Assembly (NCBI GenBank): GCA_973895155.1
Contig: OZ316895.1
Coordinates: forward strand, 19,978,803-20,042,802
Reading direction: 5' to 3'
Length of the DNA: 64,000 nucleotides
Origin: Marsupella aquatica
Lineage: Eukaryota > Plantae > Marchantiophyta
This document shows, in pieces, positions 17,627-64,000 of this stretch. Both the position numbers and the translations under genes were made by a program. The notes under the pieces were generated by a model. It was not told the origin of the DNA. It was given only the letters and a program-made list of their open reading frames with translations, and searched no databases. How positions within the stretch are numbered: position 1 is the first letter of the stretch; every line of letters starts with the position of its first letter.

Positions 17627-17638
17627 GCTCTGATACCA
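17627..17638 (-). promoter_or_regulatory. Primer-binding site complementary to the tRNA-iMet 3' end
   Basis: The minus strand reads TGGTATCAGAGC, 2 nt inside the 5' LTR. Confidence 0.95.
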
Positions 17639-17640
17639 AT

Positions 17641-27322: not shown

Positions 27323-27860
27323 CCCCTATGCAATTGCACAGTTCACTATATATTACTCTGCCGAAGGGCAGAAAGGTCCAACCGGGAGACAGGTTCCCAT
27401 GGCAGAGCAACCCAAGAATTGCACACTGTGAGAATGGAATGGAATGAACATGTGTATAGTCGGGAATAGGAGTACATATAGTGGGACCAGGATGACCGGC
27501 TGGTCCGGTCGTCCGGTCAAAGGTAGAGTCTAACACTCCCCTTTGGATATATAGTGACAACTATATAGACAACATAGACTATACCTATTATATCATGTTC
27601 ATATGAAATACATGATATAAGTACAAGCGAGGTAGACTGCCTCGTTAAAAAACCTTTATCAACTCTAGCTTAGTAAAAACTCTACCAGTGTAGCAGAGAA
27701 AAATATGAGTGCTAAAGGAAAAAGAGTGCAGCCTAACAGTCCTCGTCGTAATAAATGTCAATGTTAAGTAAAGTTAGATGTTATAGTAAGTCTAGCTTTA
27801 ACATGTGTCTCATCAGTAAGTCGTCAGCAGCATATCATCAGCATCATGTCGTCAACATCA

Positions 27861-31420: not shown

Positions 31421-31574
31421 AGATCTGGGGTTGTGGAGCTACTTGCCACTAAGTGTGCCTCGGGTTGGGCAGGTAGATCTGAAAAGTCTTGGAATGGGTC
31501 GCTGGACCCCATAAACGCCCCGTGGGTTTCACGGGGTGGTGGCCTAGAGGTTTGTCCATCTTGGATGGACCGTT

Positions 31575-32574
31575 AGTATAGATCTCTAAGGTGTTGCGGG
31601 ATTCTATAGTTTCTCGCTAGGTGGTTTGTCATGCCACATTCATGGCATTTTGGTCGTTCCCGTTGTTGTCGGGATTGTGACCAATCATTTCTGCGGTTGT
31701 TGTTATATGTTCTTCCATCGTTGCGTCCACCGCGTCCGCCACGTCCTCCTCGTCCTCCGTGTCCTCCACGTCCTTCTCGTCCACCACGTCCTCCACGTCC
31801 TCTAAAGGTCCGTTGGGAGTTATATTGTGGACGTTGGTTATAGAAACGCCCCCTATTGTGGGTGTTTCTTTGGTTGCCATTCTTAGTGCGCTTTATGCCT
31901 TGCCTCGATGTGGAGGGTTCAACATTTTCTATGTTATGGGTTTCATTCTGTTGTCCTGAGGGCAGTGTGCCCGCAGGTCATTTTCTAGAGTTTACTAAAA
32001 GGAGTTCTTGGTTTCTTTCGGTGACTAGGAGGTGGGCTATAAGCTCGGAGTATTGCCCGAACTTCATGTTTCGATACTGTGTTGATAGCCACACATTCGA
32101 TGAATGAAATGTCGACAGGGTCTTCTCTAGCAGATCCTTGTCTGTGACCGGCTCGCCACATAGTGCGAGGGTTGATGTTATTCTAAAGAGTTTGCTATTG
32201 TAGGCTGAAATAGAAGTGAAGTCCTGGACTCGCAGGTTTAGCCAGTCTTGCCTGGCTTTAGGTAGTTCGACCAGTTTTTGGTGGTCGAATCGGGTCTGTA
32301 GGGCTGTCCATAGTTCCCTAGGGGTCGATAGGTGCATGTATTGTCTCTGGATGAATCTATGGATATGGCGTCTCAGGAATACTAGAGCCTTAGATTCGTT
32401 GGCTTTAGTTAATGGGTCTGGTTGTGGTTCGCCGGCAAGGATGGGTTGAGCGAGGCCTATCGCAGGGAGTAGGGTTAGCGAGGTTAGGTTTTCTTTTAGG
32501 TTCATGGACCATTCTAGGTAGTTGTCGCCGTCTATTTCTAGGGCGGGGAAGTTGAGTTTCTCAAGGTTGGTCAT
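31575..32574 (-). pseudogene. Bianca-like Gag with RGG-repeat region and degenerate zinc knuckle
   Basis: The 198-aa ORF continues past a TGA (likely CGA) into RGRGGRGG repeats and CHECGMTNHLARNY. Confidence 0.9.
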
Positions 32575-33251
32575 CTCTAAGGTCCTGGCGTGCAGCGTTG
32601 TTGTGCGTGTTTATATAATATATATATAGTCAAAAGACAATGCACATTTGCCGCATGCAATGGTGGAGAAAGGGTTGATGAGAGCAATCTAGGTCATTGT
32701 CGAGTAAAGCGGGTTTTTGCAGAATTTAGGGTTTGCACTTATTAAGTTGGTTTTCTTTGTGAATGTATAACTGCAAGGTTTCCTTTGTATTATCTTTTTC
32801 CTTTGTTAAGCTGTGCAGTAATGAGGTTTTGCAGTTTATGCAGTTATTGGTGGTAATTTACTCGTGACTTGGTTAAGTGCATTATCTACTTTGTAAATGA
32901 AATCTCTTTGACGAAAGTTGCAATTAAAGAGGGTTTTGCGGTTATGTGCGGTTATGGAGCATGTGCTTAGCGGGTTTTGCTCGGTTCGACTTTCTCTCGA
33001 TGTTTTGAGCCTTCAAGTTGCGTTTTCTTCCTCGTTTGCCGCTTCGCTTGACCTTCTGATCTCGTTTGTTTTTCACTCATGGCCATCCGTCCTCAGGTCT
33101 TCTCCTCTCTACTCGCTTCTTTGTGGCTTATGTCTTCGGCTTATTTCGCTGCTTTCGTGTTCCTGTTGCTTCGCAAGCATGTTGCCTCGATTCTTGATTT
33201 GCGAAAAAGCTTACCTAATAGTCACGTTCCTTCGCAAAATTGTTCTTATTT

Positions 33252-33345
33252 TTGCCTGGTACTCGATCCAGGGTGCTCGATCCTTCTTTTCGCCTGGTAC
33301 TCAATCCAGGGTACTCGATCCTTCTTTTTTGCCTGGCACTCGATT
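33252..33345. repeat. ~39-bp tandem repeat (about 2.5 copies) in the Bianca 5' leader
   Basis: gcctggtactc(g/a)atccagggt(g/a)ctcgatccttctttt is repeated. Confidence 0.85.
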
Positions 33346-34107
33346 CGATCTCCTTTGCGCTTCTTTCCCATTTTCGATCACTTTTCGAGATCTACTCGTG
33401 TCATCTCGCTTCGGCCTGCTTCGGTCCTTATGAAATTCTTGGGTCCTTTCATCTTCTTCTATCTACTTTGCTTTCAACTTATGGCTTCCCTTGCAAGTCA
33501 TCATGTTTTGCCTTTATACGTAGTCTCGGTTTTGGTCCCTTTGCGAATCTCTCCGTCTCTTGCCTTCGGCATCTCCCTGTCATTCGTTTGGCATCATTGA
33601 TCCTTGGTGATTGATGATTGGGGCCATGCTGATCTTCATGAGCTTTTTCTTCTATCCTTCTTTATCCTCTTTGTCTAGACTTAATGTGTGCTCGTCCTTT
33701 CTCTCGGAATTTTCTCTGTGCAGTAATTTCCTGCTCCAACAGTCAAAATCTCTTTCCTTCTCCCTCGCGGCCTTATCTGTGTGTGGCCTGATCTGCTTCA
33801 ATCTTCCTTGTAATCTGTTAATGATTCAATGCTCCTTATCGCCTCCGATCTCCATAAGCCTTCGAAGGTTTCCTTCTCAATCTCTTCGATGCTTCATCGA
33901 GACCTTCTTTCTCTTAATCGTCGGAGGCCAGATCGAAGTTTTTTTTTTCTGTTTTCGAAAAGTTTGTATTCACGCTTCCTTTGGTTCACTTTCCTAAGGA
34001 AAAACGAGACCCATGTGCTCCATCTCTTATCACGCTTTGTTTTCCATTCGGCATAAAAAAAATTCAATTCTCCATGGTCTTCTTTTCGGCTCCGCTGGCT
34101 GAGACCT

Positions 34108-34120
34108 CGTGCTGATAACG
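34108..34120 (-). promoter_or_regulatory. Primer-binding site for a half-molecule tRNA-Ile primer
   Basis: The plus strand reads CGTGCT-GAT-AACG directly next to the LTR, matching the anticodon arm of eukaryotic tRNA-Ile(AAU) (CGTGCT-AAT-AACG). It lacks the TGG of a 3'-CCA-type PBS. Confidence 0.75.
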
Positions 34121-37100
34121 TGTGAGAATGGAATGGAATGAACATGTGTATAGTCGGGAATAGGAGTACATATAGTGGGACCAGGGTGACCGGCTGGTCC
34201 GGTCGTCCGGTCAAAGGTAGAGTCTAACACACACCTCATTTTGTAGAAAAGAAAAATTGCTTAGCGCCAAATTAGCTACACCGCTAAGTAAAACACAGGC
34301 TTTATCAGTTAACAGTAGTAAAATAGATAAGCATCAGCGGATAGATAGTATCTAAATTGCGTAGGCAGAGAAGAGTCTCATTTTCAATAGAAACTTGATT
34401 TTGAGAAACAGAAGTAGAAGGAACCTAGAAGCGCAATGTAAGTCAAAAGCTTTTAGTTTGATAGGACTCACCATTTCAGCAATGTGGGACATGTATGGCA
34501 ACACTATGATTTACGGGAAGGCTGTGACATTCCATTAAATGATGACAATTTTTGTGCTTTAGGGCCCAGTGTCCAAAAAGCTAGGCAAGGTAGAGATGAG
34601 CATAGAGTGTTGGCCTAGAAGCGCAATTGTGTAATCCATCAATGCAGGCATCCATGTCGGCCAGTTGGATTAGGGCGATATATGTTCACTTTCTATGTAC
34701 AAGTTAGCTATGTGGTGTACCAAATATGGGAAGAGGCTGGATCCTAGTTGTTTGGCATCAATGGGCTGGAATTCATGAGCGAGGCAACCAAGAGAGAACT
34801 TGTAACTCTGCCATGAATGAATGTTGGGCAATAAAAGTAACACAAAACAAGGGAAGAGGAACCAGACAGATATTAGGGTTCCATAAAATGATCACCAGTT
34901 CAACATATCGACAGAAGAAAGAGGGGACTAGTAACGCTACTAGTGGAGGAAAGAGAAGAAATGGAGACAGCTATAGAATAACTCAAGCTCAAGACACCAA
35001 AAACGAATGAATCCATTGAGGATGACAACTCAGAAGCAGAACTAGGAGCAGAACCAAATGAATGGAAGGACGACCAGGAAAGTTATGTGTGGTTCTGTAA
35101 CTAATAACAGTTAATAGTCAGAAACAATCAACAAGTAGAAATAATTAACAATCAGCAATTAGTCTTAGTTGAATAAAAGATTTACAAAACTGAATAAAGG
35201 GTTTGGCAGTTGCAACTGTCAACAGTTAAGTCAAAGACAGGTATGTCTGGACCAGAGTAGAAAAGTATAGGTCAGTTTGGAAGAAAGTGATAAAGGTCAT
35301 TTGTTGTGCAAACTTTCCAGGACCAGAGACTAAAGAGGAAGCCTAGGAAGAGGTCATGCCGGATTGCTAGACCTGGAGGTAGAAATGGAAGCCCATGGAA
35401 GAAAAACCATGTAAAAGAAATTGATTCAAACTCTTGAATAGTTGATGTTGTTGAAGCCTATTTGCAAAACTGCAGGGAGCATTTGATTACATAGTTTATG
35501 TTTCTTGAATGCAAGTAGGTATAAAGGAAAGAAATTGATTGTGAAGAAAATATGGCTAGAAATGCTCACATTTGATAATGGGAAACATAATGATGTGGCT
35601 GGAGCGGTTCTTAAGAAGGATTGACATTATATTGCATGTGAAAATTGTAATTGCAACCCATTAAGAAATCTTTTAAGTTGGAAGGATTAGAATTTTGCAA
35701 GTAATGTTTAAGGAAGAAGACCCAAAGGAGTGAGAAATGAAAAAAAAACCCACCTTTGCTTGGTCATTTAAGCCAAGGAACTGAAATTGAAAACTTTATT
35801 GAGTTTCTTATTTTACCCTGATAAATGTTGTAGTAGTTGAAGAGTTTCTCTACTCGTCATTATTTTAAAATGTGTAGATTAAATAGAAAATTCAAATAGA
35901 TACCAGAAGATACTAATGTATCAAGCACAACTCATCCAAATGTTATTTTCTTTCACATCTATTTTACAACTTTATAAATTATTTGTTTATTTGAAATGTT
36001 ACTTTTTAGTTTTCCATTATTTAGTTAGGAGGTTTAATTGTTTTTCTTTGCCTTACATCAAACACAAATAGTCAAATTTGGTTCTTCTTGCATAACCATT
36101 GTTCTTGTTTGTGACCAATATTGCTGATGTGGCTACACAAGCATCCAGGAATTTTGGAATGAGCTTCCCATGGGGTCTGTAAAAAGTGCAACTAGCAATT
36201 GAGTTTTAAAAGTTTAAATTTTAGTTTCTTCCCCATCTAACATTGGACTCTGACTTATGGATGTGCTGCTAGAAGCGGGGAATGCATGAGATTGCCTTGG
36301 GGAGATATTGGAGTGTCAGGCTCATTGTGAACTGCTTGTTTGTGTGACAGACTCATTTGATATATGCTTGCAAAGTTCTGCATTACTTGTTGATATAGGT
36401 CATTGTGTTGATGTAATGGCCTCATTTTCTGCTATACTAACTCCATTTGTTTAGTGTAAGTTGCCTGGCTGCAAAGTTGTGTGTGGTTGAAGGATGGGAG
36501 AGTGCAATGAAGGAGAAGTGATATTTGTTGAGGGAGGGGAGGTTAGCTCGGAGACCTTGACATCCTCTTCCTGGATGAGCTTACCCAACCTTACGGCTTT
36601 AAGTTATGGATCTGAGTTGTCTTTTGTGTTTAATGATACAAATTCCACTGGACAGTCTTCATGTACAATGCAGTTGTGTTCACCTCACAATGAGCCAAAT
36701 TTTGTGCCTCTTAGTGACCCAATTGAGACCCAATGCAGGTTGAAGTCCCTGTTGAAGTAAATGTCCAAGGATTTAGGGTACTTGCTGACCCTTCCTTGTG
36801 GGATGCAGGGAAAGGGAAAGAGAAGCATGAATCTATCTGAGCACAATTATTCATGGGCTACTAATAGTGCTAACTTGCTAAGGAAGGTATGACAAATGGG
36901 CACAAGTAGCCCACTTGGAGATTTGTCTTTCAAGATGCTAGATGAGCTTCTTAGAAATGTTTTATTTCCCTGGTTTTGTAACTAGATGGCCAGCAATGTC
37001 CTTCATCTTTGCTAGTGGGCAAGATGAACATTTACAACTGTGTTATCAAACACTTGATAGAAATTTCAATATCTTCAAGCATGAATGTTTTATGAAAACC

Positions 37101-45981: not shown

Positions 45982-48058
45982 TCAAGCTCCGGGAACAAAG
46001 CTGGTGGCATAGGCCCAGGCGTTGTTGCTAACGGGATCGGAGAGGTGATCCAAAAGGTTCTCAACAGGTCCCTTTCCGGTGACAATGGCTTGAACAAAGA
46101 ATCCAAACATAGAGAACATGGCGAGTCTTCCATTCTTGAGCTCCTTCACCTTCAGCTCGGCGAAAGTATCTGGGTCACTAGCCAAACCCAAGGGGTCGAA
46201 GTACTTGCCTCCGGGGTACAATTCTCCTCCCTCTCCCACTCCGGGAAGACCGTTCTGGCGGTATCCCTCAACCAAACCCATGAGCACGACCTGGACGGCC
46301 CAAACTGCGAGGATGCTCTGAGCGTGCACCAGGTTGGGGTTTCCCAAATAATCCAAACCTCCCTCGCTGAAGATCTGGGATCCGGCCTTGAACCACACAG
46401 CCTCCTTGAGCTCCACACGGGAGTATTTCACGAGCAACTCTGGAAGGACACAGCCCAAGGCTCCGAGCATTGCCCATCTGCTGTGGATGAGCTGAAATTG
46501 AACCAAACACACATGGAAAGGCTTAATCGAAGGAACAATCAGACAAAACCTGTACACCCAACTACTATCACCACATGTCTACCGAAGTCTGATCTTTGGC
46601 CTGTGCAATGATTGCATGCAAGAAACAAATAAAGAAACAAAGGTCGACGACAATTCGTGATCTTCACATCACATGCCTCAGGATCTCAAGCTTATTGTGC
46701 ACCTCTCAAGCCATCTTCTGGCCATCTCTGGCTTACAAAAATGGTACATTCACGTGTTTTGGGTGTCAAGAAGTAAATAAACTGAGCGTCTCCGGCTCAA
46801 TCAACAATGACGAACACAATGATTAACTGTAAACCATGGTGAAGTTGGAGACCGAAATATTGACACGCTGACACTCACTCTCTGCCTGTAGAATATGGCA
46901 ATCGGGTGTACAATAAAGCAAAAGACAAATGACTGGCTAAGGACGCCTGGCCAATATGTATGACGGGAGAAGACGAACAAATCCGCTAACAAACAATAAG
47001 GAGGGCTCATATAACCAGGCAGGGAATGAAGTACAAAAGGAGACGGGAACGAGACATTACCTCCAAAGCACGGTTCTTGGCGAAAGACTCGGGATCGGCA
47101 GAGAGCCCAGCAGTGTCCCAGCCGTAGTCACCTGGAAACTCGCCCTTCAAGTAAGAGGGAGTCTGGGCGGAGAAGGGGCCCAAAAATTTGGGTCTGTCTG
47201 GGCCATACCAGAAGTCAGCATCCTGCACACAGAAAGAGCCATAGCTAAGGCATAAGGCAACACGAGCTGCCTAAGTAGAATCCGCACTTTGACTTTTCCT
47301 AACACACACGACAATTTGAGTTCTCTCACTTTAAGGGTATTATCTACCCATTCCTAACTAGCAAATTTTACATGATGTATTGCTTCCCGCGATAACTCTA
47401 CATAATAGTTGCAAGACATCCCGGCTCTAACAATCAATGTCATTTCCACCCTACCGATCCAAGTCCCAAATTACCCTTTCCATGGATCCATTACTGACGA
47501 CCTCCAGCGTATTCAAGTCTGTCAATGGCCACCAAGCCTACTCGCACCGACGACCCGGCCAGAAAATCCTACTCATTCGAGTCCTCTCCGTGGGAAAACA
47601 ACTTCACCCATGTACCAACACTTCTCCATTACTTTGCTTTAGAGTATTTCGCTTCCTGTCATTAATTAACACAAGAACAAGACCTACACCTCTACCAAAT
47701 TCAGAAACTGAGAGCTCAATTTATTGGTCAGCTCCCAGATGCCGGCCAAGGGTCTGCCCTTTAACGTCCCCTCGCAACAGCGAACCCCCACACCCCTGAG
47801 ATATGGACCACAAATGACCCTACACTGAGACAAATGATCCCTTCGAGAAAGGCATTCTGTCGACAAAGAAACAACTCAATGATGTACCACAATCACATTA
47901 CAATTGACGACTCCCCTACGCCAAGAAACACTTACCATGGAGACACGGGCCTTGCAGAGGGTGACGCGATCCCTGAGAGCATTCTGGGGTGCTGGTGCAG
48001 CACCCAAGAAAGCCGATCGGCTCACAACATTGGTGGAGAGTAGTGAAGTGGCCGCCAT
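45982..48058 (-). CDS. LHCB3: Light-harvesting chlorophyll a/b-binding protein Lhcb3 with transit peptide; exons 48058-47936, 47222-47061, 46491-45982 (264 aa)
   Basis: [101 protein letters not shown] and a terminal PGA are Lhcb3-type signatures. Introns are phase 0 with GT/AG ends. Confidence 0.93.
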
Positions 48059-49790: not shown

Positions 49791-50001
49791 TGGCATAATT
49801 GAAAGTGAGGGTGAAGATTAAAACAGAGGGGCGAGATGAACTGGAAACAACTCCAACTAGGGCATAACTAAGAGTAAGGGTGCAGACAAAAAATAATAGA
49901 GAAGGGGGAGAGATGAAAAATAAACAGTCAAGGGCATAACTAAAAGTGAGGATGCAGACAAAAATAAGAGAAGGGGCAGAGATGAAAAAGAACCAGTCAA
50001 G
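49791..50001. repeat. Degenerate ~70-bp tandem repeat x3
   Basis: ggcataa.t..aagt.agg.tg.aga...aaa...aga.gggg..gagatgaa occurs three times. Confidence 0.85.
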
Positions 50002-52339
50002 ATTCTTGCAAGGTACTTGTTTGTCCTCACCTCTATTTCCATTTAAGGAACAGGTAATCAGGCTAGTGGTGGGAAAGGAAACAAAGGGGAGAATACTTGG
50101 AAGTTTGTGAGTAATTAACAGCGATAAGCTAACCACTTGGTCAGCTCAGGTGGCTTGGGGTAACTTGTCTCAAGTTCAATTCCTCTTAGTGTGTCTCTTA
50201 CAATCGGTTCTGCTCTGACTGTAAAATAGTAGGTTTACCATCTTAGAAGGGTGTTCAATGTGTATTGTGCCACAGGCACTTGTGGTAGTTATAGGAATTA
50301 CATGAAAAATAAATAAACCAGGGGTTTCACTTGCCTATAAGTGCAGTTCACTTTTAAGAAAACTTAAATAGCAATAAGCTATAGCTAGCATGTGAATTGT
50401 CACACTGAGGTCAAAAACATTGTCAAGTTGCAACCATGATCTCTTTTATTCCTTGGTTTTTTAGATCTTGAAAACCAACCATTCCAAAGCTTATGGCAAT
50501 CTTACTTGGTCTACCTCAAGCGAGAATTGATAATCCTTTCCCTGGTTACCTTTCCAGAATGTCAAACAATCAATTGCACTCCTTCAGGATCTAGAATTAC
50601 AAATGAATGTGAGGGAACACTTTTCATTTCATTAACTTTTTTGTTACATATGAATGTTTTAGAACACGCAGAATCTCGGGTGGGTACTGGATTCCATTTA
50701 GTGTTGCCTGGTGATGCTCGTTCCCTGGCCTTAAGCTGTTTGGAGTTTGGTTGAGGGTCCTTTTCCTGGGCCTCCTTCTGACCTGTTGTGTGGTGGTGGC
50801 CACCATGAGTCAGGTTCTCTTGGACTGGTCTCGTGTATTGCTGTTTACTTATCAATAAAAGTTCTTTCAACACAAAAACAGAACCAAACACTTCTAACCT
50901 TGGATATGGGGGACTGAAAGTTTTCCCTAAGACTGATGACTGAACTCTTTTATTCCTCTGAGAGGATTCAATCGAGACCTTGACATAAATCAGTACAAGA
51001 TCAATATCTCTGCATTGATTGACTTAGTTATACCTCTTACACAGCAAGTGAATTTTTAAGTACTTAAGAATCCTTGAAGGAAAACAAAGTGAGTGCTCAT
51101 CTTCTAAAGGGTACCTACTGTAAGGTTTCCTTTTCATACCGTCTTCCAGTGAGCACAGGGCCTGTGTTCAGAACGAGCTTCAGAAATCGAAATTCTATTC
51201 CGCGCAGAGCCCGGGCATTTCAACAAGAAGTCTCAATTTCAATTCAGAAACAACATTTGAATCGAAGCAGACTTTCAGACGTAGACATTCGTTCTTAGCC
51301 CAACGCTGAAAACAATGTCTCATATGTGTCTGCATTCAGTGTGCCACCTGCTTTGAGGATCACGGTCGTGGTAATATTTTGGGTGTGAAATAAACCAGAG
51401 GGAGACATGTTCGCATACGTTGGGAGTGTCATCTATGATGCTGTCAAATTAAATTTCTTTAACTCAAGAGCGGCAAGAGCAAATTTCCACAAGATTGCCA
51501 AAGAAAACGCACTGTTCCAAGGCAACTAAGGTGCAGCAAATATAAAAATCTGTCAATAAAAACAAAGTATTCACATCGTCACAATGAACTTAGGGCTACC
51601 AACCGCGCCATCAGCAATTCCTCGCCAATTCATTTCCTGCTTACTGCACATCACTACAATCTTTCCGGGACTGTAAATTTCTGCAATTGGGGGTCCGGGT
51701 ACTTAAGCATTTGTGACAACCACAATCAATGACATAGATCTCATTGTTTCCTAGAAGTCGATCCCTTCTTTTACGCAGCAAATCATACATCTTACAAGGC
51801 TTCGTCAGATGCTTCTAATTTCCATTCAGATATTGTGGACTCGTGGAGAACCACCAAGTCCGGATTGCCACTTTTAAGATCATTTTCTCGACTGACTTTG
51901 TGTGCGAGATTGCATTAAACGAGACACAAAATTTTCTTGTGAGAATTTAGACCGACAGCCAATTTCCATTCATCCCCAGGATTTCTTTCCCATTGCACAC
52001 ACCTGTGTGCGAAAATATAACCTCTCCTCGAAGTCTAAGTGAACAAATTAAGTGCAGATATACCCTCACTCTCACGAACAATCTCTCAAATCCTATTACA
52101 AAGTTTGCTACAGCTCTAGGAAGTTTGCTACAATTCAACAAATCCAAGTTGTTAGTCCCACGCCAGAGAAGTTTTGTAAAACGACAATTCACCCACAGCC
52201 TTCTGAGCTCTCAAGTGCTCGCGCTCTGCCCAGTCCTTTCTGCAAACATTTGTTAGATAAGCCTCACATCTTGCTCATTGCCTGCAACTAAAATAAGTCG
52301 TTGGGAACCTCAAAAACTAATTAGAGTGGTGCAGATGAC

Positions 52340-52489
52340 TGCGGCAACCAGCAAATGGATACAAATGCCGATCTGACCACCTTGCCTCCTGCGGCAACCA
52401 GCAAGTGGATAAAAATGCCGATCTGACCACCTTGCCTCCTGCGGCAACCAGCAAGTGGATAAAAATGCCGATCTGACCACCTTGTCTCC
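52340..52489. repeat. 50-bp tandem repeat x3, near-perfect
   Basis: tgcggcaaccagcaa(a/g)tggata(c/a)aaatgccgatctgaccaccttgcctcc at 52340, 52390 and 52440. Confidence 0.95.
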
Positions 52490-53814
52490 TGGTGCCGACA
52501 TGAGAATCAACCTAGAGGTGGGACGGGAGTCATTCCAGCAGCTCAGTGCCTTCCAGGCATCAACATAAGGTTAAAGCTATTTATCGGTCCGGTTGCAATA
52601 TTGATTGAAAAGCCCCGAACACAGCTCAGTTCTCTGGGGAGAAGGAGGGTCTGGTGGTTTTGCATTGCTTTTTGCATTAGCCAGGTTTTGCCGGGGGTTT
52701 TCCTTGCAGAACTAGGAGAAAGCAAGAAGTAGAGAGCCTTGGAATTATTCAAACCTCAAAACTGTTGTCCAGCCTGCAGAGTCCTCGAGTTGGCTTGTTC
52801 GACCCACTAAGATGTCCCCTGCCGTCTCCGATATTGAACAATTGAAAGTACACAGGAGGGCCCTGCCATCTCATTAATAAAAGAAACACAAATGGTTAAG
52901 AAGCTCTTCCCTTTAGCAGCATCCTGCCATGCCATCTCCGAAACCAATGTGACAAGAAACACAAACGATTAAGAAGCTCTCCTCCTAATCGAACGAGCAA
53001 CACGCCCAACTAGTAGCATTCCGAACAAGCAGTCCCCTGAAAGAAAAGCATCTTGAACGAGTAGCATCACGCACATCCACTCAAACTAACAGCCCGATCT
53101 CACCTCCTTCATCGCCTGCCACCTCGCAGGCTCAAATTGAGTTTACTATTCGTACTCAGTATCTACCAGAATATCTCCTCAAACGTTTAATTAATAAATA
53201 CTAGAGGGCTCTGTAAGAAAGACAACGGCTAATCGATCATAGCAGTATATGATTCTCATATAGCACAACTGATCTATTATCAATCCTTCAGGTAGGATAC
53301 GGCACAGCTAATCCACCACCACCACAATTCAGTGACTAGTGACTGCTGAATGCACATATCGTGATATACCTTCATCTGGTGATATCCTGCAGCTCGTTTT
53401 GAACAGTTCCGAGTGCAAGATTCCAGTGGGGCTATTAGGAGGATGCTCTCCCAGCGGAGCTAATAGGACTCTACACATGAGTTTTGATTATATCCCAACT
53501 ACCCTGATAGAGATGACGACCAAAATAGATCTTGCAAAAAAAAGAATTATATGCTATCTCCAGCTTGTATTTGCCTCATCCCCATTTTTTGTTCACCCTC
53601 ACTTTGTCCTTATTTTTGAGTCTAGCTTTGTCTTTATATGGAGTTGCGGTTTAGAGGCTTCACTCTAGACCCTAGCCCTCGAAAGTAGCTTATGTTCGCG
53701 ATCTACTAGTCAGATACTCAATTCCCTTCAACAATGTTAACTAGTTCAGACCATTTGCTCACAAATATTGGACAGGAGGAAATCTACTCTTCCCCAAAAT
53801 CTTTACCCTCGGAA

Positions 53815-53905
53815 TTCTCAAATGACCCCAGTAGAGAACTTCAAAATCTCCCAAAAACAATACCCTCAAGGTCCTCAAATGACCCCAGTAGGCAACTTCA
53901 AAATC
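53815..53905. repeat. Short direct duplication with ~57-bp period
   Basis: ctcaaatgaccccagtag..aacttcaaaatc x2. Confidence 0.8.
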
Positions 53906-55141
53906 AGCAGTGCAATGTCCAGCCCATTAGTGGCAGCTTCAACTTAAACCTAAAATGTAACACTATTGTGCATGTCTGGCACGTCTGTAGCCACTGAGCA
54001 CTCAGCAAGTTCTTCCAACTCTTGCAACACCGCAAAATTGGACGAATAGTTCATCGACCCCCTCTAGTATTATTGGTAACTTCTAGATAAAGTGACTTGC
54101 TAACCCTAGGGTGGCTTAAGATGACAGTCATAGTCTGAGTGTGTGTTCTTTGAACATAAACAGAGGTGACGACATTCAAGCCCGCTACATCATTTCCAGA
54201 GATTCACCTTGCCCCCAATCCCCCAATCCCCATCTTCCAATTGCACCCCTAACTTCAGTTATTTTTTAGCCATGGTCCACATGCTTCACTCTAGACCGTA
54301 TGCAATGAAGATTAGCTTTTGATCGATTGCGACTAAGTCAGATTGATGTGTAAGATATGTATGAGTGCCATCCCTTGAGGGAGGTTTTCAAACATTCCGC
54401 TTGCTGCAGGTTTAGTCCTAGTGCTCACTTTGGATCTGCCCGTCCCCACCCACGCAAGTCTCACGCAAGGTCCGCACTGAGGTCTCATTGAATCAGGCTT
54501 GCTAACACTTAAATAAGGCAGTTCTTAAGTGTGTCAAATTGCCTCACAGTTTAAGTTGGTTCACAAGATTTTTAGGAATACCGGGTAACCTGTTGGTTCC
54601 CTTGCGCTTCATTATTTCACCATTAGTTGCCCCATGTAAGCAACTTGGTGTCACCTGCTCATCAAACTATGTGCATGAAAAATACATCTTTTTCTTCCCT
54701 AAAATTGTTTGTACTATATTATTGGGATGTGGAGGGACGCTATTTGGATTGTTGCTCACACATAGGAATGAGTATGCTTGTTTTTGCTCCCGGAGATGTA
54801 GTTTTTTAATCAATTTAATGACTACTCCACCCCATGGCTTTTAATCAAGTCCTGCGGACCACCCCACACATTCTCTCTTTCTGATCTATGGGTGAATGTT
54901 GTCACCACTTTCCCACTTCTTCTACACAACCCACCATGCCAAAATTATGAAGTTGTAGTGTGTAGTGAAATTTGTTAGCCACAAAGATACACTAGGGGAA
55001 CGGAAGCTCAAAATATTGATCACAAAAGAACCACACGTACAAAGTTTTAACTGTAAAACCGAATCCATATCTCTTGATGCAAAAAGTGTGCACACTACAA
55101 AGACAACCCAACCTCTTGTTGTGCTTCTAACACCTACACCG

Positions 55142-55276
55142 ACACTGAGGACACAACCATGATCCACTAGGAATCACCTGCAATGATGGTGTCAAACATG
55201 ACATGTGCCATCCTCTAGAACATTTATCACAAATCAACATAGTAGTTGTTCCCTAAGCAGATCCACACAACATACA
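55142..55276 (-). pseudogene. PHD finger (C4HC3) at the C-terminus of the gypsy integrase
   Basis: Reading through one TAG gives CMLCGSA*GTTTMLICDKCSRGWHMSCLTPSLQVIPSGSWLCPQC, in the integrase frame, with a terminal stop at 55127-55129. Confidence 0.9.
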
Positions 55277-55279
55277 TTT

Positions 55280-56500
55280 CAAGCCAGCACGAACATGTGC
55301 CAAGCTTGGATCTATTGTACCATCAATGTTGGGAAGGTGACATGGTGCACAGTTGCGCACATGATCCTTCCAAACCATACCATTGCGTCCCTCCAACATC
55401 AGGACACCAGAAGGCAACACTTCACGCACATGTAAGATTGTCCGGCCTGCGGTCACATCAAGTGTCGTGGGTGCTGTCTACTGCAAATAAACATAATCAC
55501 CAGGATGAAATCGTTGAATGCTTGCACGATAACCTCCTCCACAAATAGTGGCATACCTCAAAGTATCACGATGTTGGGCAATGGCAAGGTTGTCAAAATC
55601 CATGGGCATCACTCTCTGAAATACCCGTGCTGTCTCTGAACACACCTTGACCCAAACATCAGGATCATCCAAGTTCACAACTAGTGCAGCATCACGACGA
55701 ATAGCTGCTGGCAAATCTGGCTCTCTACCATAGAGCAAAAAGTAAGGTGAGAAGGATGCAAGTGATGCTTGCCGACTGAAATGGTAGCCCATCGCTAACC
55801 AAGGTAGCTAGAGATCCCAATCTCCCAAATGACCAACCTACAAGCCATACTTACGCAATCATCTCTTCACAGTTTGCACAACTCTCTCAGCTAATCCATC
55901 TGCCTCAGGATGATCACGAGAGGTAGTACGATGATCAATCAGAGCTTGTTCACACAAACTCCTAAACTCTCCACGGAACTCAGTTCCCTGATCAGTCAAC
56001 ACCTCAGCTGGTGCTCCAAAATGACTGAGTACGCGATCCAAAAATGTAGTAGCAACTCCTCCATTGGCTTTATCTGGCAATGCCACTAGCTCAATCCACT
56101 TGGAGAAATGCTCCACCATGACCAAAACATACCGATTATGGCGTTGGGTAAGAGGTAATGGACCAGCAAAATCCAAACTCCAACGATATCCCAAACCCTT
56201 GATCGGTAACGGGTGCAACTGGGGAGTGGGAGCATTAAATGATGCTCTCACTCTATCACATACCACACACTTAGCTATCAACTGTTGGACATGAGTGTGC
56301 ATACCACACCACCAATACTATGTCTGCAGCAAGCTATAAGTGCGCTTCACACCAAAGTGACCCAACTCCTCGTGTGCATGTCGCACCAAATGTACTCGTT
56401 GTGATGGTTTTGGTACCACCAACACACTACCATCATGCAGTACTCTCAAAAGATAGTTTCCCTCCCATCGAAACCTCTTGGCTCTCTATAGAACCCTGTC
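55280..56500 (-). pseudogene. Gypsy integrase (H2C2 zinc finger, DDE core, C-terminal region)
   Basis: HEELGHFG...CVVCDR, WSLDFAGPLP, VMVEHFSKW, VLTDQGTEF, HPEADGLAER, FSPYFLLYGREP, F.PGDYVYL. Confidence 0.93.
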
Positions 56501-56758
56501 ACGTTCTTTGGCATCAACACTGCCAACAATAGAACCACTGCGCAGATATTCCAACACTCTCACATCATTGTGAATATCTTGCTGTCCAGAAGTTACCTCA
56601 CCAACATCCACATTTGAAGACTCATCATCCACTCCATCCAATGAGGTAGAGTCCATAGATCCACTGTATGCTCGCACCCAACAAAGAAAGGTAGATGCAT
56701 GCCATCCTGGCACCATCTCCTTATCTGACTCATCATGCCATCTGGCTCCAGTCTCATC

Positions 56759-58207
56759 CTATTGACTGGTACATGGATTGCGGCTTAATCCATCTGCATC
56801 CAAGTTCACTTTTCCAGGCCTATGCACCACCTGGAAATCATACTCCTGTAACAACAATGCCCATCGTGCAAGCTTCCTTGTAAGCTTGTCAGACTCCATT
56901 AACCACTTAAGAGGCTGATGATCAGTGATCAAGGTGAAGGGATTACCAAACAAGTAGCAATGAAAGTGTGCAACAGCCCACATTGCTGCCAAACACTCTC
57001 CCTCATAAGAGCTATACTTAGCCTCTACTGAATTGTTTGATCTACTGGCATAAGCCACAACAAACTCATTCCCCTCATCATCCTTGTGAGTCAACACTGC
57101 TCCAAGTCCTACTCCACTCCAATCAGTGTGTAGCTAAAATGGTCTGCCTGAAATGGGTCTTCTCAAAATAGGGGATGATGCCAACCTTTGCTTCAACTCT
57201 TGAAAGGCATGCTCCTAGTCATCACCCCAAATCCATTCCTGATCCAACTTAGTGAGTATGGTCAAAGGTTTAGCAAGCTGGCTAAATCCTTTAACATACC
57301 TCTTGTAGTAGCTCGCCAATCCCAAGAATGCACAAACTCTACTCACATTAGTAGGACAAGGAATCTGTGTAATGGCCTCCACTTTAGTCTGTTGTACACC
57401 CAATCCCCCTGGGTATATAGTGTGGCCCAAATACTCAATCTGGTCTTGGAAGAATTTACACTTGCTAAAATGGAGCCCATGTGCTCTCAATCTTTCCACC
57501 ACAATCTGCAAGTGTTGTTGATGTTCTTCCACAGTAGAAGAATAGACCAAAATATCATCAATATAACATCTGACAAAATCCAAACCTGCAAGGATTTGAT
57601 CCATGACTCTCTGGAACTCAGCTGGTGCATTCTTCAACCCAAATGATAAGAATAACCACTGATACAAATGATCTTTGCCATAAGAATCAATCCCCCAAAA
57701 TGTTGTCTTGGACCTGTCAGCATGCCTAATTGGAAGCTAATGGTACCCTACCCTCAGATCCAATGAACTGAAAACCTTTGCATGCCCCACAACATCAAAG
57801 ATCTCCTCAGGTGTGGGCATGTCATATCTATCAGATTTTGTCTGGCGATTAATGGGTCTATAATCACCACACATGCGCCTATCTGTGTAATTGCCATGCA
57901 CATCCTTCCTGGCTGGCAGCACTGTGGCAGATGCATACTCCCCATATGAAATCTCCACCAATCCAGCCTCCAACAAATCTTGAGTTATGCTTTGAATCAG
58001 AGCTCTCTCCATATCACTGTAATGGTATGGCCTATGAAAGATTGGCGCATCACTAGCCAATTCAATCTGAATACCAATACCCTTTAATGTCCCCAAATCC
58101 TTCATGCTAAATGCAAAACAATTCCAGTAACTCTTCAAGAATCGATGCATGCGACGTCTCTCCTCCCTTGTCAACTTAGGGCCAAGCTGTGGTTCCCAAC
58201 TCTCCAC
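56759..58207 (-). pseudogene. Gypsy reverse transcriptase and RNase H
   Basis: YIDDILVYS, KCKFFQDQIEYLGH, FLGLASYY, PF*LHTDWS, VAYASR, EGECLA..WAV, TDHQPLKWL, HRPGK.N.DADGLSR. Confidence 0.95.
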
Positions 58208-58439
58208 TAAATCCCTAATATCTCTTTGTAGGGTAGAAGAGATAGCCGATGATTGCTATTTAGCAGTAGATTGAGCAGTCCCTTCCTACTCAACAATCTG
58301 TCCAGCCTTGACCAATCCTGCCATAGGTCCATGGACCGTCTGCTCACCCCCAACTGTGGTCAGTACTATCTTAGTGGACCGCAAGCTCACCAAGGGACAA
58401 TCAGTAATTCTAGCAGAGCACATCCACAACTGTTTAGCT

Positions 58440-59400
58440 ACTCCCAAGCTGATAATCCAAGTCAAACAATTCAAATCCATTGCTTGACCAAGAACCTGGC
58501 GCCGCAAATCCTATGACACAGAGGCAACTGCAGTGGTGCTAGTCAAAAATCCCATAGCACGCTCCCTCTCATCAGCAATAGGCTCCACTAACTGTCAGAG
58601 AGTTGTGTCCCACACAAGTCCAGGGCCACCTGCTTTGAATGCATATGAAGCAGAGTGGCTTACAAGAGTGGGTAATGCACAACATGGGCGTCCAACTACA
58701 TTGACCACTGCCAATGGAGTCTATCAGGTTGGGTCACACCCTGTGCACGACGCCCTAGATGCAAAATATCATCCACCACTAAAGCTAGTGAGCGTGGAAT
58801 GTTGTCAAATGCACGCTTCAGCACCTCACATGGGATCAAATTAGTCCACCACAAGCCTAGACGATGTGCATGAGAACCCACACGTGCAACATCCAATAAC
58901 ACAACAGGTCCAATCCAAGACCTCACCTGGTGAACACTGGCAACAATCCGACTATGATCATCACCTAACAATGGCACATTCTCCAAAATGTATGTTGGAG
59001 ACTATGTCTGATGTAGCTAGAGATGACGCAGCACCCGGAACATCTCCCAAAATAATACAGAGCGTGGATCATGAAAGCCATTCCCAACGCCAGCTCTAGA
59101 TTGGCCCTGACATGGCCAACCAGCAATCACCAAATCAATGGGGCCAACACAATGCAGATGATCCGCCCCCAGCAATGAAATATCAGCAGGTAGTGCATGC
59201 TGATAACCACGAACAGCATCCACTGGCAGCAACTGTGGATATCTATCCACCAGCATAGCCACATGTTGCAATGAGACCCTCCGTGCTGTCTCATCTGTCA
59301 CCACATACAAATAACGATGCACAGGAATTTTTGCCTGAAGAACAGCAGCCAATCCAGTGTTAATCCCACCAAAAAGATCCAATAAATAAATATCCTCCGG
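58440..59400 (-). pseudogene. C5 cytosine DNA methyltransferase domain (DNMT3-like) inside the gypsy polyprotein
   Basis: Motif I LLDLFGGI (~59370), IV IDLVIAGWPCQGQSRAG (PCQ at 59107-59115), PRSVLFWE, VI ILENV (~58980), VIII SHAHRLGLWWTNL, IX EPIADERERAMGF, X RRQVLGQAMDLNCLTWI. No introns; four stops and one frameshift near 58715. Confidence 0.9.
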
Positions 59401-59759
59401 TGGATACTGCCAAGCAATAGGAGTGGTATCCAATGGTGAAAGAGTCACAGGTCCATCTGCAAGAGACCTCTCTACTCCTGACTGTGGTGTAAAAGCATGA
59501 CGCCATGCATCATGTACCAATTGTGCTACTGCCTGTGGCAAGGCCTATGCAGTGCCCCACACTGGTGGCACAACACTGCCAATAGGTAATCCCCGCATGA
59601 TGTGCTCCTCATGAGACTCCTCCAATGGTGGAACATCTACTGCATGCGCATTACCCTCAATCAAATCATCAGGTCCAGTAATTACACCACTGAATGCTAC
59701 CAAAGACAATGGTGTGGATTTAGGACCTCCCATAGGTCCACTAAATCTCACTGGCAATT

Positions 59760-60180
59760 TGCTCAATCGAGCATCTCCTGACTGCCAATCAGGTCTATAT
59801 GACACTGATTCCTCCCAAAAATCAAGAATAAATCCCATGGGGTAGAGCACTGTACATCCCACCAACACATCATATGACTTTGCCTTAGTCATAATAACTT
59901 GCGCCTATATTTGTGAGCTATCTATGGTATGACCTTCCCGAATCCTCAAATCAAAAGGTCTCCTAGTAATGTGTTGTGTAGGTGTAGGTCCCCCCAATGA
60001 AGTCTGAATGGGAAAGGGACAATCCTCCAAATCCTCTGGACGCAATCCCAATCCACGTATGGCAGACTTACCCAACATCAAGGGCTGAGCACCAGTATCC
60101 AGTAACACTCTCTCTGGCTGGTATACTGCCCCAGAAGGCCCAACTAATCGGAAGATACCACTCCGATTATCCAATGACAC
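59760..60180 (-). pseudogene. Retropepsin-type aspartic protease of the gypsy element
   Basis: Catalytic motif RVLLDTGAQPLMLG and downstream YDVLVG..L in the same frame. Confidence 0.85.
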
Positions 60181-60881
60181 AACACTAGGTTTAAACCTAG
60201 TCCTCTCAAATGCAGGGCGTGCTGGTAAATCCACCAACCTCGCTGCTGCATCCCATGTCTCACTAGTAGCAGTAGGCGGCATGGTCTTCACTGCTTCAAC
60301 ACTGCAAGCTGCTTTTGCATGGGAAGCAACCACTGAAGGTGCCCTCAAAGAGTGTAGCTGCCAATCTGAACACTTCTGCAGGACCAACTCCCAAGTTCAA
60401 CATGTCTGTCGCTGAAAATAATGGGGTGCGTACCATGGCAGTAGCCGCCCCCAGCAAGGTACCTGTCATCCTTGCTGCATCACTACCTGATTCTGCCAAC
60501 TTACCCACGCCAGGGTTTGTCCGAACCGGGTTCATAGAGGCAGTCTGAACTGTCTCTGACAATGTAAAAGATTGAGGAAGCTTTGTTTGCCGACGTGCAT
60601 CCCCCTCTGTGGATCTAACTCCACTAGTGCTCCTCGGGGCTCAAGAGCTTTGGCTGCCCCACATGTCAAACCTGCTAATGCATCAATATGTGTAGTGCCA
60701 CACATGAATCCCATGGTGGCAAGGTCTCCATCAGCTCCATAAGATGTGGAAGGACCATGGGATGTAGAAGGTCCATAGGATGTAGATGCCCCATCACCAG
60801 AAGTAGGTCTCACCTGGGAACTAGCCATGGCAGCTAGTTGTTGCTCCAATTGAGCAATCTTAGCATCCTTTGGATCTATGG

Positions 60882-62198
60882 TTATAGCAGGGGCAGCATC
60901 ACCTCCCTATCTCCCTGCATGTGGCATGCCACGACCACGTCCACCACCCTACCCCCTCCTCTTCCTCTTCTCTGATCATGTGTACGGCATCCTCCTCTCC
61001 GTAACTCAGGATGGAGTAAGAAACACCTATCCTTGGTGTGTCCAGGAGCTCCACAATGATCACACTGTCGTTGATCAAGCGCTGATGCTCCTCTTGATCC
61101 TCTATGATCTAGGCAATATCTTTGTGCATGATCCCCACCACAGGTCCAACATCCTGACTGTTGTCTAGCATAAGAGGGCATAGGTCTCTGGTTGGTAGAC
61201 TCTCGTGCAGTAGGCTTCTTCCTCTAGCTCTTTCGTGTAGTAGGCTATGGTGTGGATGTAGATGCAGCCTTTGGTGCTTCCTTGCCAAATTCGGAAGTCA
61301 CCACCTTCTCATTCACCATATTGAGCTCAATGCGCTTAGAAAGGGTAAAAACAACTGCTAATGTGGGATCTGCATCCCTAAGTAGAGTGACATCTCTCAC
61401 TCTGCGTCGCAATTCTTTGTCCAAAATTGCATACCAAAACTGGACTGCTTGAGCCTCTGTCACTCACTTGGTGACAGTGATCAATCTGCGCATATGAGTG
61501 TATGCCTCACGTAGACTCTCTCCAGTCTTGCGCTGGAACTCCTAGAGACCCTTCAACTGATCAGTTCTCACACCCTGATAGTTCTGCTTTAGTACCTCAA
61601 AGAATTCCACCATAGGGTTAAATGCTGGTGCAACTCCTGTTCCTGTCACAATCACACCGGTAGGAGTAGCGGTGGATGCTGCTGGAGTGCTGCTGGTGGA
61701 TGGTGTGCCACTCTGGCTAGTGCTGCTAGAAGAAGCAGCAGCTGTGGCAATGGGTTGGGAAGCCGCACTAGTGCCATAGGTGATGGACACGTAATTAGGC
61801 GACCAATGATGCCTCCATGCCTCAATCTCAGCCAAATGAGCCTTCCGAAACTCATGGTAGTCATCCATGGGTGTCCCCTCCAAATGCTGAAATAATCCCT
61901 TCTATGCCATGAAAGGGGTAAACAACATGGCGTTACGCAATGTCTGCATATTGCACCACGTATCAAACTCCTGGATGAAGTCATCTAGATCAATTGTGCC
62001 AACTGCACCAGAGTATCGTCGTGGGCCCTTCGTAGCCTCGTACATCTCGTCCATATCCCACAACAAAGGTGCAACCACCTGATGACGAGGAGAACTGGTC
62101 ACTAAGTTCTCGTCGAAATCACTGTCTGAAGCTGCACTGCTGACTGCTACCAATGCCGTTGGACGAAAATGCGCCCCATTTCGAGTGAACCAGTTCAT
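60882..62198 (-). pseudogene. Gypsy Gag with two zinc knuckles
   Basis: Four ORF pieces in one frame: RYSG..LDDFIQEFD, F.RKTGESLREAY.HM, CWTCGGDHAQRYC and CDHCGAPGHTKDRC followed by RG-rich sequence. Confidence 0.8.
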
Positions 62199-64000
62199 CG
62201 TCCATCGGGTAACCCAGCAACACCAGAAGAATCCGTGGTGACCAACCTAACCTAATCTATATGCTAACCCTAAGGGCAATCTATCTCTGTCAGCAACACA
62301 AGCACTCAGCATGGTGTGTTGGGCATCACTCCAACATCACCAGGAGAGAAATACGTAGCACAACTAGAATGTCTGGTTGCAAACCATCACTCCTATAGAA
62401 TCAAGCGCCCACGCCAAACTAACATGGCGCATAAACAGGAAGCACATGTGGAGAGGATCCAATCAACAAGAAGATCAATAGTGATCATACATCAATCAAA
62501 CAATGTTCATAATGTTTAATGTGGGGCCTTCATAATAGGCCTCTCAATGTTCAATGTCGTAGCTAAGGATCCATGCACAATTGGTTCAATCCATGCATCT
62601 AGATGGATTCAGAAGCATCAAAAACCTTTAGGAGCTTATGATTTGGCCCAAAATGGCAATCTAAACAAACTAGAATGTGTATAAAATGCCTAAATGCTCA
62701 TTCTATTAACATCAAAGTGGAAATGAGTGTGTGTACACAAGAGCACTTAAGAACCACATAGTTGAGCGCATGGGGAAGGAATAGCTTTGGGATGGGTGAC
62801 CTCTCACTTGTAGTTCTGCACCAAAATGGCCGCTTCAAAATCAGCAGCTTGCAACTACTCCTCACGTACCAGCGGCTTACTGGCCCGCCCGCTCCTACTC
62901 CGCCCTCACGCCCCTCGTCCCGAGTTGCCTCGAAGCCTCGAAACATCGAGATGAGCCAAAGAGTGAGCCCGCAACGCTTCGATTTCACAACATTCAGAGT
63001 TTCCCCGAGAGTTCCGCCCCCTGTTTCCCTTCACAAAAGTTCGCGGCGGAGCAAAGTACAGTCCGTCTCCCGCATCGACGTACTGTCTTCGCAGATCTGC
63101 AACGAGCGTCGGTTTGGCAACATTCAAACTTTGCCTTCACAAAACGCATCAACATTCCTGGCGGGTGGATCCTTCCAGATCGGCGCACGACGGTCGCTTC
63201 GGATCAGTGCCAACAACGTACAGTCCGCACCGCCAAATCAGCAACATGTGACAGTCATTTCCTTCACAAAAATGTGGATGTCGCTTCTACTTGACAGCCG
63301 TCTCGATTACACTTAGCGCCGCGTCCCTTCGCGAAACCATTGGAGCCCGATTTGGCAACATGCAATAGTCGTTTCCTTCCAAGAAATGCAGGTTCAGTGT
63401 GCGGAGTGCATCGGTCTTCGGCAAGACTACAGATCCAGCAACATTTGCCGGATCGATCCCTTCACACATATGCGGGCGACAGCAGCACATTGTCCAATCG
63501 CAAATCAGCAGATCAAACATTCACCCCCCACAGAGCACCGCACTCAATCTAGTTGCAGCCAATTGGTACACAAACGATTAGAGCCACAGACAAGCTACAG
63601 ATCTGGCAAACCTCCAACTCCAGATCCGCTCAAGAATGAAACTCACACGATCTCAACTTGGATCCACATACCGGCGATCCAATCAAGCAATACAATGCAC
63701 GATCCGAGATACCACGAACCATCGTCGAACACAATCAAACTGAAAATCAAAGCTCTGTCCAACAACAACAGAGTCCGATGCCTGATCTTTCAATGTAATC
63801 TCAATACAATCGGCACAATGATCCCGGTCCACAATACCCCATCAATCCCGCACCGATCCGATCACACATGTATGTCAAGCCAACGCACCTTGCACTACTC
63901 AAGGAATCCACGTTACACAAGCGGAGCTCACAGCCACCATAGCCACACTCAAGCTTCACTCTCTCCAAGGCTCAACATTGAAAGATGACCTTTCAATGCC

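Follow-up and report, generated by a model that had tools for sequence, protein, structure and literature searches.

A decayed Gypsy-DNMT3 retrotransposon of a split-repeat lineage with a conserved stop codon in the liverwort Marsupella aquatica

The question raised by this locus is whether one plant retrotransposon can hold both a writer and a reader of chromatin marks as a self-contained epigenetic system. The locus lies on the minus strand of a stretch of 64,000 nucleotides from the liverwort Marsupella aquatica (contig OZ316895.1, positions 19,978,803 to 20,042,802), referred to here as the window. The initial annotation described a single polyprotein running from Gag through protease (PR), cytosine methyltransferase (DNMT), reverse transcriptase (RT), RNase H (RH) and integrase (INT) to a PHD finger. 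The element is securely identified as a decayed Ty3/Gypsy retrotransposon of the Gypsy-DNMT3 (split-repeat) lineage, and it is a land-plant relative of KnitGypsy-Dnmt3 from Klebsormidium nitens. The proposed domains and their order hold, as judged by Pfam searches of a translation with X at stops and, for Gag, by homology. A single open reading frame (ORF) does not, because there are 24 stops over the three frames read, at least four frameshifts (near 58720, 60338, 60600 and 60900-60990) and, among the stops, one that is conserved in the family.

The combination of an RVT_1-type RT with an H2C2/DDE integrase in the order PR-RT-RH-INT is that of Ty3/Gypsy elements. There is no Pfam match to a chromodomain in the window element, which carries a PHD finger in its place and so is not a chromovirus, and the additional RNase H characteristic of Tat elements was not found beside its single RNase H. 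Gag has no Pfam match and is assigned through homology only, being 56% identical to the Marchantia protein P0006. There are 80 metagenome relatives, kept from 123 confirmed stretches (the loci given L numbers below), and they share the domain order of the window, which is thus no artefact of nested insertion. The element extends past both ends of the 55127..62198 stretch first marked. When 20,867 contigs from run X1 were aligned, depth rose at the passage from unique flank into repeat near 54900, and it was high again at 63679-64000. Among 16 sequencing runs listed with matching sequence, none is of RNA. Summed depth, which is not a copy number, is about 2e5 over the element body and 60-80 in unique flank contigs. 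The family is highly repetitive in its host, as the initial annotation had considered it might be. Some 700 bp of 5' non-coding sequence (62977-63678) has a depth about 200-fold below that of the body and is rare or divergent among copies.

The window copy is dead. There are 21 TAG, 3 TGA and no TAA codons among its stops, 23 of which reflect decay, and its DNMT is broken by stops, by the frameshift near 58720 and by an altered motif VIII residue. This copy more often has A or T where other copies in contigs of related runs have G or C. Its stop spectrum points to a host in which CHG methylation is strong and CHH methylation weak. The copy has a CpG observed/expected ratio of 0.32, and 35 CAA codons remain beside the stops. 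The stop spectrum of the main metagenome family is different, with 326 TAG, 198 TGA and 103 TAA.

The remaining stop, at 58256-58258 between DNMT and RT, is a conserved feature of the family rather than a product of decay. Among the 39 main-family copies with a homologous junction, 38 have a stop at this codon (25 TAG, 13 TAA), or 38 of 40 if L023 is counted, which has Tyr and was dropped by the identity filter. Three loci whose junction is deleted or shifted are left out of this count, and there is an insertion at this place in L055 and L056. None of the 1540 other codon columns has a stop fraction above 0.40. A stop is found in all four subfamilies, namely the main family, that of the window, L034 (UAG-CAA-CCA) and L065 (two stops in a row), and the frame is maintained across it even though the spacing is 327, 384, 426 or 504 nucleotides. 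In contigs of four runs, every alternative letter at 58250-58258 stays below 8%. Ordinary C-to-T decay was considered as the origin of this stop and was rejected, given its conservation across copies, subfamilies and contigs. Protein ends agree with its position, in that open Gag-PR-DNMT proteins from Marchantia, Calypogeia and metagenomes end 63-99 residues past the DNMT, and the predicted start of RT-RH-INT-PHD proteins lies about 20-50 residues ahead of RT. Because many loci are members of a single family, and some represent one and the same insertion, the independent support consists of the four subfamilies and these protein ends. A conserved stop after the DNMT places this domain in the Gag ORF, with readthrough or without, and would likely make the methyltransferase as plentiful as the coat protein. 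There are five open ORFs of 1278-1281 amino acids for Gag-PR-DNMT in Marchantia polymorpha (P0006, P0137, P0138, P0144 and P0145), two of them with Mp_Vg locus tags and all annotated as hypothetical. Mp_4g09160 is an example of an open Marchantia copy of ORF1.

How RT and the downstream domains are produced is a further matter. The context UAG-CAR-YYA drives readthrough in tobacco mosaic virus (TMV) (PMC2754532; PMC2194720). It is exact in the window and L034, matches at five of six letters in the main family and is absent from L065, and CAA follows the stop in three of the four subfamilies. We favour occasional readthrough, and several observations weigh against it. The exact context is present in only two of four subfamilies; CAA-CCC follows the stop in 37 of 39 main-family copies, and this family has an ATG six bases after the stop. 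Re-initiation or splicing in place of readthrough is possible in view of this CAA-CCC-ATG sequence and the double stop of L065. In other branches, DNMT and RT share one ORF (P0042, P0057 and P0176). Copies are also not independent (L069 and L071 are one insertion, as are L029, L075 and L076). In addition, the four-run contig scan had an imperfect positive control, since a private stop 12 bases from the end of the scanned stretch was not listed by it; that neighbouring stop differs in 89-100% of depth in a separate contig comparison. Downstream of the stop, the RNA has no clear stimulatory structure (z scores of -0.5, -0.9 and -1.9 against mononucleotide shuffles).

Perhaps, then, the stop is a true end and Pol is made by re-initiation, by internal initiation or from a spliced RNA, in which case the DNMT would still be linked to Gag. 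This would fit the ATG of the main family, the several ORF2 proteins that begin with Met 35-47 residues ahead of RT, and the Marchantia gene models P0012, P0013 and P0020, which splice across the junction but are predictions only. There is also a precedent in Tca2, whose stop gave no readthrough in a yeast assay (PMC2194720). However, there is no in-frame ATG from the stop to RT in the subfamily of the window, not even as a common variant, and both the frame kept in all four subfamilies at differing spacing and the CAA in three of them count against a true end. We regard this alternative as unlikely and continue with readthrough as the preferred reading.

The methyltransferase is of the DNMT3 type. 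Its best matches among solved sequences are DNMT3A and DNMT3B (E 1.4e-11 for locus L034), and a model of P0176 (pLDDT 87) has TM scores of 0.70-0.75 to these proteins. As in KnitGypsy-Dnmt3, the domain is not rearranged, and its catalytic motifs are in the normal order, although the window copy is broken. The catalytic Cys is retained in 64 of 65 copies, and this Cys, the ENV Glu, both Arg residues of motif VIII and the Gly of motif I are invariant across 10 diverse domains. Between subfamilies, omega (dN/dS) is 0.17-0.18 for DNMT, 0.29 for PHD, 0.10 for RT and 0.15 for Gag, so that DNMT and PHD are both under purifying selection at this level. Three points reduce the weight of these values: dS is near saturation, the PHD estimate comes from 37 codons, and omega within the main family, which includes decay after insertion, is 0.59 for DNMT and 0.67 for PHD.

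Conservation of the domain need not mean that it methylates cDNA. The DNMT might instead be kept for binding, either of cDNA or RNA so as to protect or hold an internal integrase attachment (att) site, or for some other substrate, with no camouflage by 5-methylcytosine. The DNMT of KnitGypsy-Dnmt3 gave no methylation in yeast, which its authors call inconclusive (PMC5890265), and this result counts both for binding and against the methylation that we propose. A role in binding would also fit the replacement of PC by EC at motif IV in several algal DNMTs and the large lineage-specific insert that separates motifs VIII and IX. It is at odds with the invariant catalytic residues and with the related SymbioDIRS-Dnmt3 enzymes, which methylate CG (PMC5890265). 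On balance, binding alone appears improbable, and methylation of cDNA is retained as the preferred function.

The PHD finger is the second domain on which the initial proposal depended. Pairing of the two domains, which the initial annotation had asked to be tested among family members, is almost complete. A full integrase is present in 48 of the 76 proteins found by a DNMT-only profile search, and a PHD in 46 of these 48 by motif or 47 when Pfam is added, and in 17 of the 18 metagenome loci that reach far enough. Co-occurrence was counted from this search because the integrase-end query contained the PHD itself, so that its 37 of 38 matches with PF00628 are biased. Neither rare co-occurrence nor neutral evolution of the two domains, the outcomes named at the outset as speaking against the proposal, was encountered. 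PF00385 is found beside the PHD in only one of the 76 relatives (P0225).

A Trp in the aromatic cage, two residues before a zinc-binding His, marks PHD fingers that read H3K4me3. At this position, 91 of 101 PHDs of the lineage have Gly and one has Trp, so they lack the mark of H3K4me3 readers. The nearest PHD structures are those of CHD4, DPF2/3, ATXR5, KDM5 PHD1, BAZ2 and UHRF1, and the fingers of CHD4, DPF, ATXR5, KDM5 PHD1, BAZ2 and UHRF1 mostly read unmodified H3 tails. Judged by these residues, we infer that the PHD of the lineage is of the type that binds the unmodified H3 tail and not H3K4me3. A point against a targeting role is that land-plant PHDs do not have the acidic residues common in algal PHDs, and their histone binding may be weak.

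Could the two domains nevertheless work as one? The initial annotation compared them with DNMT3 and its ADD domain, and a coupled form would have the PHD guide the DNMT or the intasome within a single protein, with the family adding de novo methylation to the host. The near-complete co-occurrence, the high repetition of the family and the presence of both domains in a readthrough product are in its favour, as is the algal form in which the DNMT directly precedes INT-PHD in one ORF (36 of the 76 profile matches have the order RT-RH-DNMT-INT). In the land-plant form, however, the conserved stop separates writer from reader, so that they do not share an ORF. The PHD stays on the integrase C-terminus while the DNMT occupies two different places across the lineage, which speaks against coupling of the ADD kind, and an integrase-linked PHD without the cage Trp leaves the analogy unsupported. 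In addition, the element encodes a protease, and Ty3/Gypsy proteases cut Pol into parts. The decay pattern of the window copy (its stop spectrum and CpG ratio) is that of an element silenced by its host. Coupling therefore seems decidedly unlikely, and separate action of the two domains remains our preferred reading.

Relatives of the element are found widely in the green lineage. A search with the DNMT piece found 28 longer proteins of 35-78% identity, those with names being from Marchantia polymorpha, Calypogeia fissa and Sphagnum. A search with the integrase end found 38 proteins, including one from Tetrabaena, and also matched a Coleochaete transcript, and the 76 proteins of the DNMT-only profile search include Haematococcus and Cymbomonas. 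By profile score alone, the DNMT profile matches 526 clusters (50% identity) at E up to 1e-30, of which 150 were listed. No named Klebsormidium sequence is among the matches of the DNMT, integrase-end and DNMT-profile searches, and an IMG/VR scan with P0004 gave two pattern matches and no confirmed one. P0100, an RT-RH-INT-PHD protein of the plant lineage, is catalogued as that of an uncultured cyanobacterium, probably through a binning error.

There are three layouts, in which Gag-PR-DNMT ends before RT, the DNMT is fused to RT, or the order is RT-RH-DNMT-INT-PHD; the last includes the named chlorophyte proteins. Proteins with the order RH-DNMT-INT form their own group in both the RT tree (SH-aLRT 99) and the DNMT tree (SH-aLRT 98), and the Coleochaete RT lies inside the wider clade of the window (SH-aLRT 99). 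Both trees are quick and unrooted, and the RT outgroup is a long branch from which no root is claimed. In the RT tree, the 'fused' labels of P0001 and P0012 stem from an X read-through and a spliced gene model, respectively. The DNMT tree was made without a host DNMT3 and fits one capture with relocation or two captures alike. A second, more distant branch adjoins main-family copies at L017 (1-2034) and L067 (478-5485, reverse), which indicates that both branches occur in one host. The RT of L017 groups with fused DNMT-RT proteins, and L067 has its DNMT before RT.

The ends of the element raise a separate question, because two full direct long terminal repeats (LTRs) are not found. In relatives, the layout is A1-ORFs-B1-A2-B2, with A of about 340 bp and B of about 115 bp, or only A..B. 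Full B1-A2-B2 is present in six loci, which is the split-repeat arrangement of DIRS-like elements. The ends of relatives are TGTC..GACA (TG..CA), and among the nine loci with both ends a 4-bp target duplication matches at all four positions in six and at three in three. None of these nine duplications has the NCGN preference of Phygy. DIRS-type elements have a tyrosine recombinase and no target duplication, and the present elements, with their DDE integrase and 4-bp duplications, are not of this type. The B1|A2 junction is the palindrome GACA-GC-TGTC, perfect in three of seven cases and otherwise altered by transitions, and the ends of all copies fall on halves of this one palindrome, with its 2-nucleotide spacer. 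A polypurine run lies ahead of B1 and a site resembling a primer-binding site (PBS) lies after A1, and from these positions the true LTR is B-gc-A. The A2|B2 junction is an exact join of LTR end to LTR start, at which L049 and L053 retain extra PBS-like bases. The split repeats would then be a permuted LTR, which points to integration from a circle, and the simplest reading is that a 2-LTR circle is cut at the PBS-side palindrome.

For the window copy, a repeat search and self-BLAST gave no LTR pair. Its A1 aligns locally to repeat A of L071 with a score of 71, compared with at most 58 in 200 shuffles, and no second A-B follows the 3' non-coding stretch, so that the copy apparently has the A-ORFs-B form. 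A complement of 12 nucleotides to its PBS-like site is predicted to serve as a self-primer, and a complement of 11 nucleotides was reached by 1 of 1000 shuffles. The homologous pairing in the main family uses different letters, which amounts to covariation between the window and that family, but only 10 of 24 main-family loci match exactly over at least nine nucleotides at that position.

There is also a difficulty for the circle. A plain 2-LTR circle predicts the mirror form A-B-A-ORFs-B, which is present in none of 22 distinct 5' flanks. An alternative without a DNA circle, in which an RNA extending from A1 to B2 undergoes an unusual strand transfer, would account for the exclusive occurrence of B-A-B at the 3' side (B is in 0 of 22 5' flanks). 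Strand transfer does not readily explain the exact A2|B2 join, once with remaining PBS-like bases, or why all copies have their ends at the halves of a single palindrome; we consider it doubtful and return to the circle. Direct origin of A-ORFs-B copies from 1-LTR circles was also considered and is weakened by L029 (B only) and L076 (B-A-B), which share flanks at 94-98% and thereby indicate repeat loss after insertion at least once.

A mechanism that joins readthrough, integration from a circle, methylation of cDNA and targeting by the PHD is, taken as a whole, rather probable. Gag-PR-DNMT3 would be made from ORF1, and occasional readthrough of the conserved stop would yield RT-RH-INT-PHD. The RNA would prime itself from its own 5' end in the manner of Tf1, and reverse transcription would give a linear cDNA with two B-gc-A LTRs. 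The ends of this cDNA would be joined into a circle at the A2|B2 junction, after which the integrase would cut GACA-GC-TGTC inside the PBS-side LTR and insert the element as A-ORFs-B-A-B. Copies of the A-ORFs-B form, such as that of the window, would arise at least partly through later loss between the B repeats. The DNMT would be abundant in the particle and would methylate the cDNA of its own element before insertion, and the integrase-linked PHD would likely tether integration to nucleosomes. The two would act as separate protease products and not as a coupled unit like DNMT3-ADD.

Only the PBS-side att site is used in the copies seen. IS3-family elements cut circle junctions, and perhaps the DDE integrase cuts the palindromic att site of a circle in the same manner, with the Gag-level DNMT3 methylating cDNA in the particle so that the other att site would be spared. 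This would be a logic similar to restriction-modification and common to the green lineage, and we hold it to be quite improbable.

There are several published systems with which the element can be compared. KnitGypsy-Dnmt3 is a Gypsy element with DNMT3 for which the camouflage of cDNA was already proposed by de Mendoza 2018 (PMC5890265). It shares with the present lineage the Gypsy domains, a non-rearranged DNMT3, purifying selection (Ka/Ks < 0.2 there) and split repeats, which a figure legend of that paper calls DIRS-like. In KnitGypsy-Dnmt3, the DNMT is in the RT/RNase H ORF, whereas the form in the window has a conserved stop between them. The term 'PHD' has no occurrence in the text and three supplements of PMC5890265, and Fig. 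4c may show one. EpiLTRs of Cymbomonas and Euglena, with DAM, a DNMT4-like enzyme and a chromodomain, likewise join a DNA methylase to a chromatin reader in an LTR retrotransposon (bioRxiv 10.64898/2026.05.21.726589), but that paper sets them apart from 'streptophytes (Gypsy-DNMT3)', an account repeated in PMC12344493. PHD fingers in retrotransposons have been called widespread (PMC6673714). With KnitGypsy-Dnmt3 and its camouflage idea, PHD retrotransposons and EpiLTRs all in print, the system is not undescribed as first supposed.

Other likenesses concern single features. In REM1 of Chlamydomonas (described there through a citation), in chromoviruses and in CopiaMBD, too, a domain that reads chromatin is thought to steer integration (PMC6673714), but in the present lineage it is a PHD on the integrase C-terminus paired with a DNMT3. 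An in-frame stop between structural and enzymatic ORFs is known from TMV, whose context is exactly that of the window, and from SIRE1, MuLV, Tca2 and Tj1; here, unlike in these cases, the stop follows protease and methylase, so that an enzyme would be at the Gag level. A PBS complementary to the element's own LTR is shared with Tf1, Sushi and Tcn1 (Tf1-type self-priming, PMC4600332), which differ in having a chromodomain rather than a PHD. The A1-ORFs-B1-A2-B2 layout is shared with DIRS-type elements with split direct repeats, from which the DDE integrase, TG..CA ends and 4-bp target duplications distinguish the lineage. In the available parts of the REXdb text, there is no mention of Marchantia, Klebsormidium, methyltransferase or PHD, and the available parts of PMC6317226, PMC6453930 and bioRxiv 363937 contain no description of these elements. 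A search that did not extend to subscription journals and Repbase found no paper on their range in bryophytes or chlorophytes, on the pairing of DNMT and PHD, on the stop or on the att palindrome. Thus, apparently new are the range of the lineage with its DNMT-PHD pairing, the conserved stop and the permuted LTR with its att palindrome.

Table 1. Coordinates of the element and of other features in the window
Feature	Position	Strand	Basis or remark
Whole element	54900..64000	-	about 54900 to beyond 64000, 5' end outside the window; homology and contig depth
Repeat A1, 3' part (R/U5-like), cut by window edge	63794..64000	-	alignment to L071 repeat A; high depth
Predicted self-primer, likely RNA 5' end	63975..63986	-	complementary to 63785-63796
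PBS-like site at end of A1, not tRNA-like	63785..63796	-	
Gag, two CCHC knuckles (61113-61151, 61023-61064)	60990..62198	-	5 stops; homology from 62054
Aspartic protease, DTG motif at 60088-60105	59782..60186	-	weak Pfam match, E 0.007
DNMT3-type C5 cytosine methyltransferase	58448..59397	-	PF00145, E 3.2e-10
DNMT motif I	59365-59394	-	canonical order, I to X
DNMT motif PC	59107-59124	-	
DNMT motif ENV	58975-58986	-	
DNMT motif VIII	58846-58872	-	
DNMT motif X	58463-58492	-	
Conserved in-frame stop UAG-CAA-UCA, end of ORF1 (Gag-PR-DNMT)	58250..58258	-	TMV-type readthrough context
Reverse transcriptase, YIDD at 57554-57565	57137..58120	-	Pfam E 8.8e-28
RNase H	56762..57133	-	Pfam E 1.8e-34
Integrase: H2C2, DDE core, C-terminal module	55283..56380	-	E 1.8e-14 (H2C2), 9.5e-14 (core)
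C4HC3 PHD finger at integrase C-terminus	55127..55276	-	one stop inside, then ORF stop; PF00628, E 6.7e-10, 55142-55276
3' non-coding stretch ending GTGACA, likely repeat B and right end	54900..55126	-	inferred
Young Ty1/Copia element	11950-17940	-	300-bp LTRs 98% alike; Gag, integrase and RVT_2 ORFs
Second Ty1/Copia element	27427-34236	-	very short terminal repeats (116 bp matched, 97%); several stops
Host gene piece, phospholipid-translocating ATPase N-terminus	4911-5312	-	
Host gene piece, ferritin-like domain	23207-23554	-	PF13668
Host gene piece, chlorophyll a/b-binding protein	45985-46578	-	
Open frame of 639 codons	5965-7881	-	no Pfam match; overlaps 66-bp tandem repeat at 7306-7556
Tandem arrays, 50-69 bp units	24749-25018, 49792-50001, 52339-52491, 53793-53905		

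The remainder of the window includes two Ty1/Copia elements, pieces of host genes, an open frame and tandem arrays (Table 1).

Earlier, a DNMT3 carried by a retrotransposon was known from a single charophyte alga, where it was described as a local occurrence. The Gypsy-DNMT3 kind now spans prasinophytes and chlorophytes to liverworts and mosses, and in Marchantia its members are present as unannotated 'hypothetical proteins'. Inventories of DNMT3 in bryophytes may mix host genes with these elements, and the split-repeat anatomy would be a reason why programs that search for LTR pairs miss many copies. If the proposal for integration is true, these LTR elements would take an unusual route, in which a DDE integrase acts on a circle at an internal att site. 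From the conserved stop, the methylase is predicted to be made at the level of the capsid, which makes the question of cDNA methylation testable in the genetic model Marchantia.

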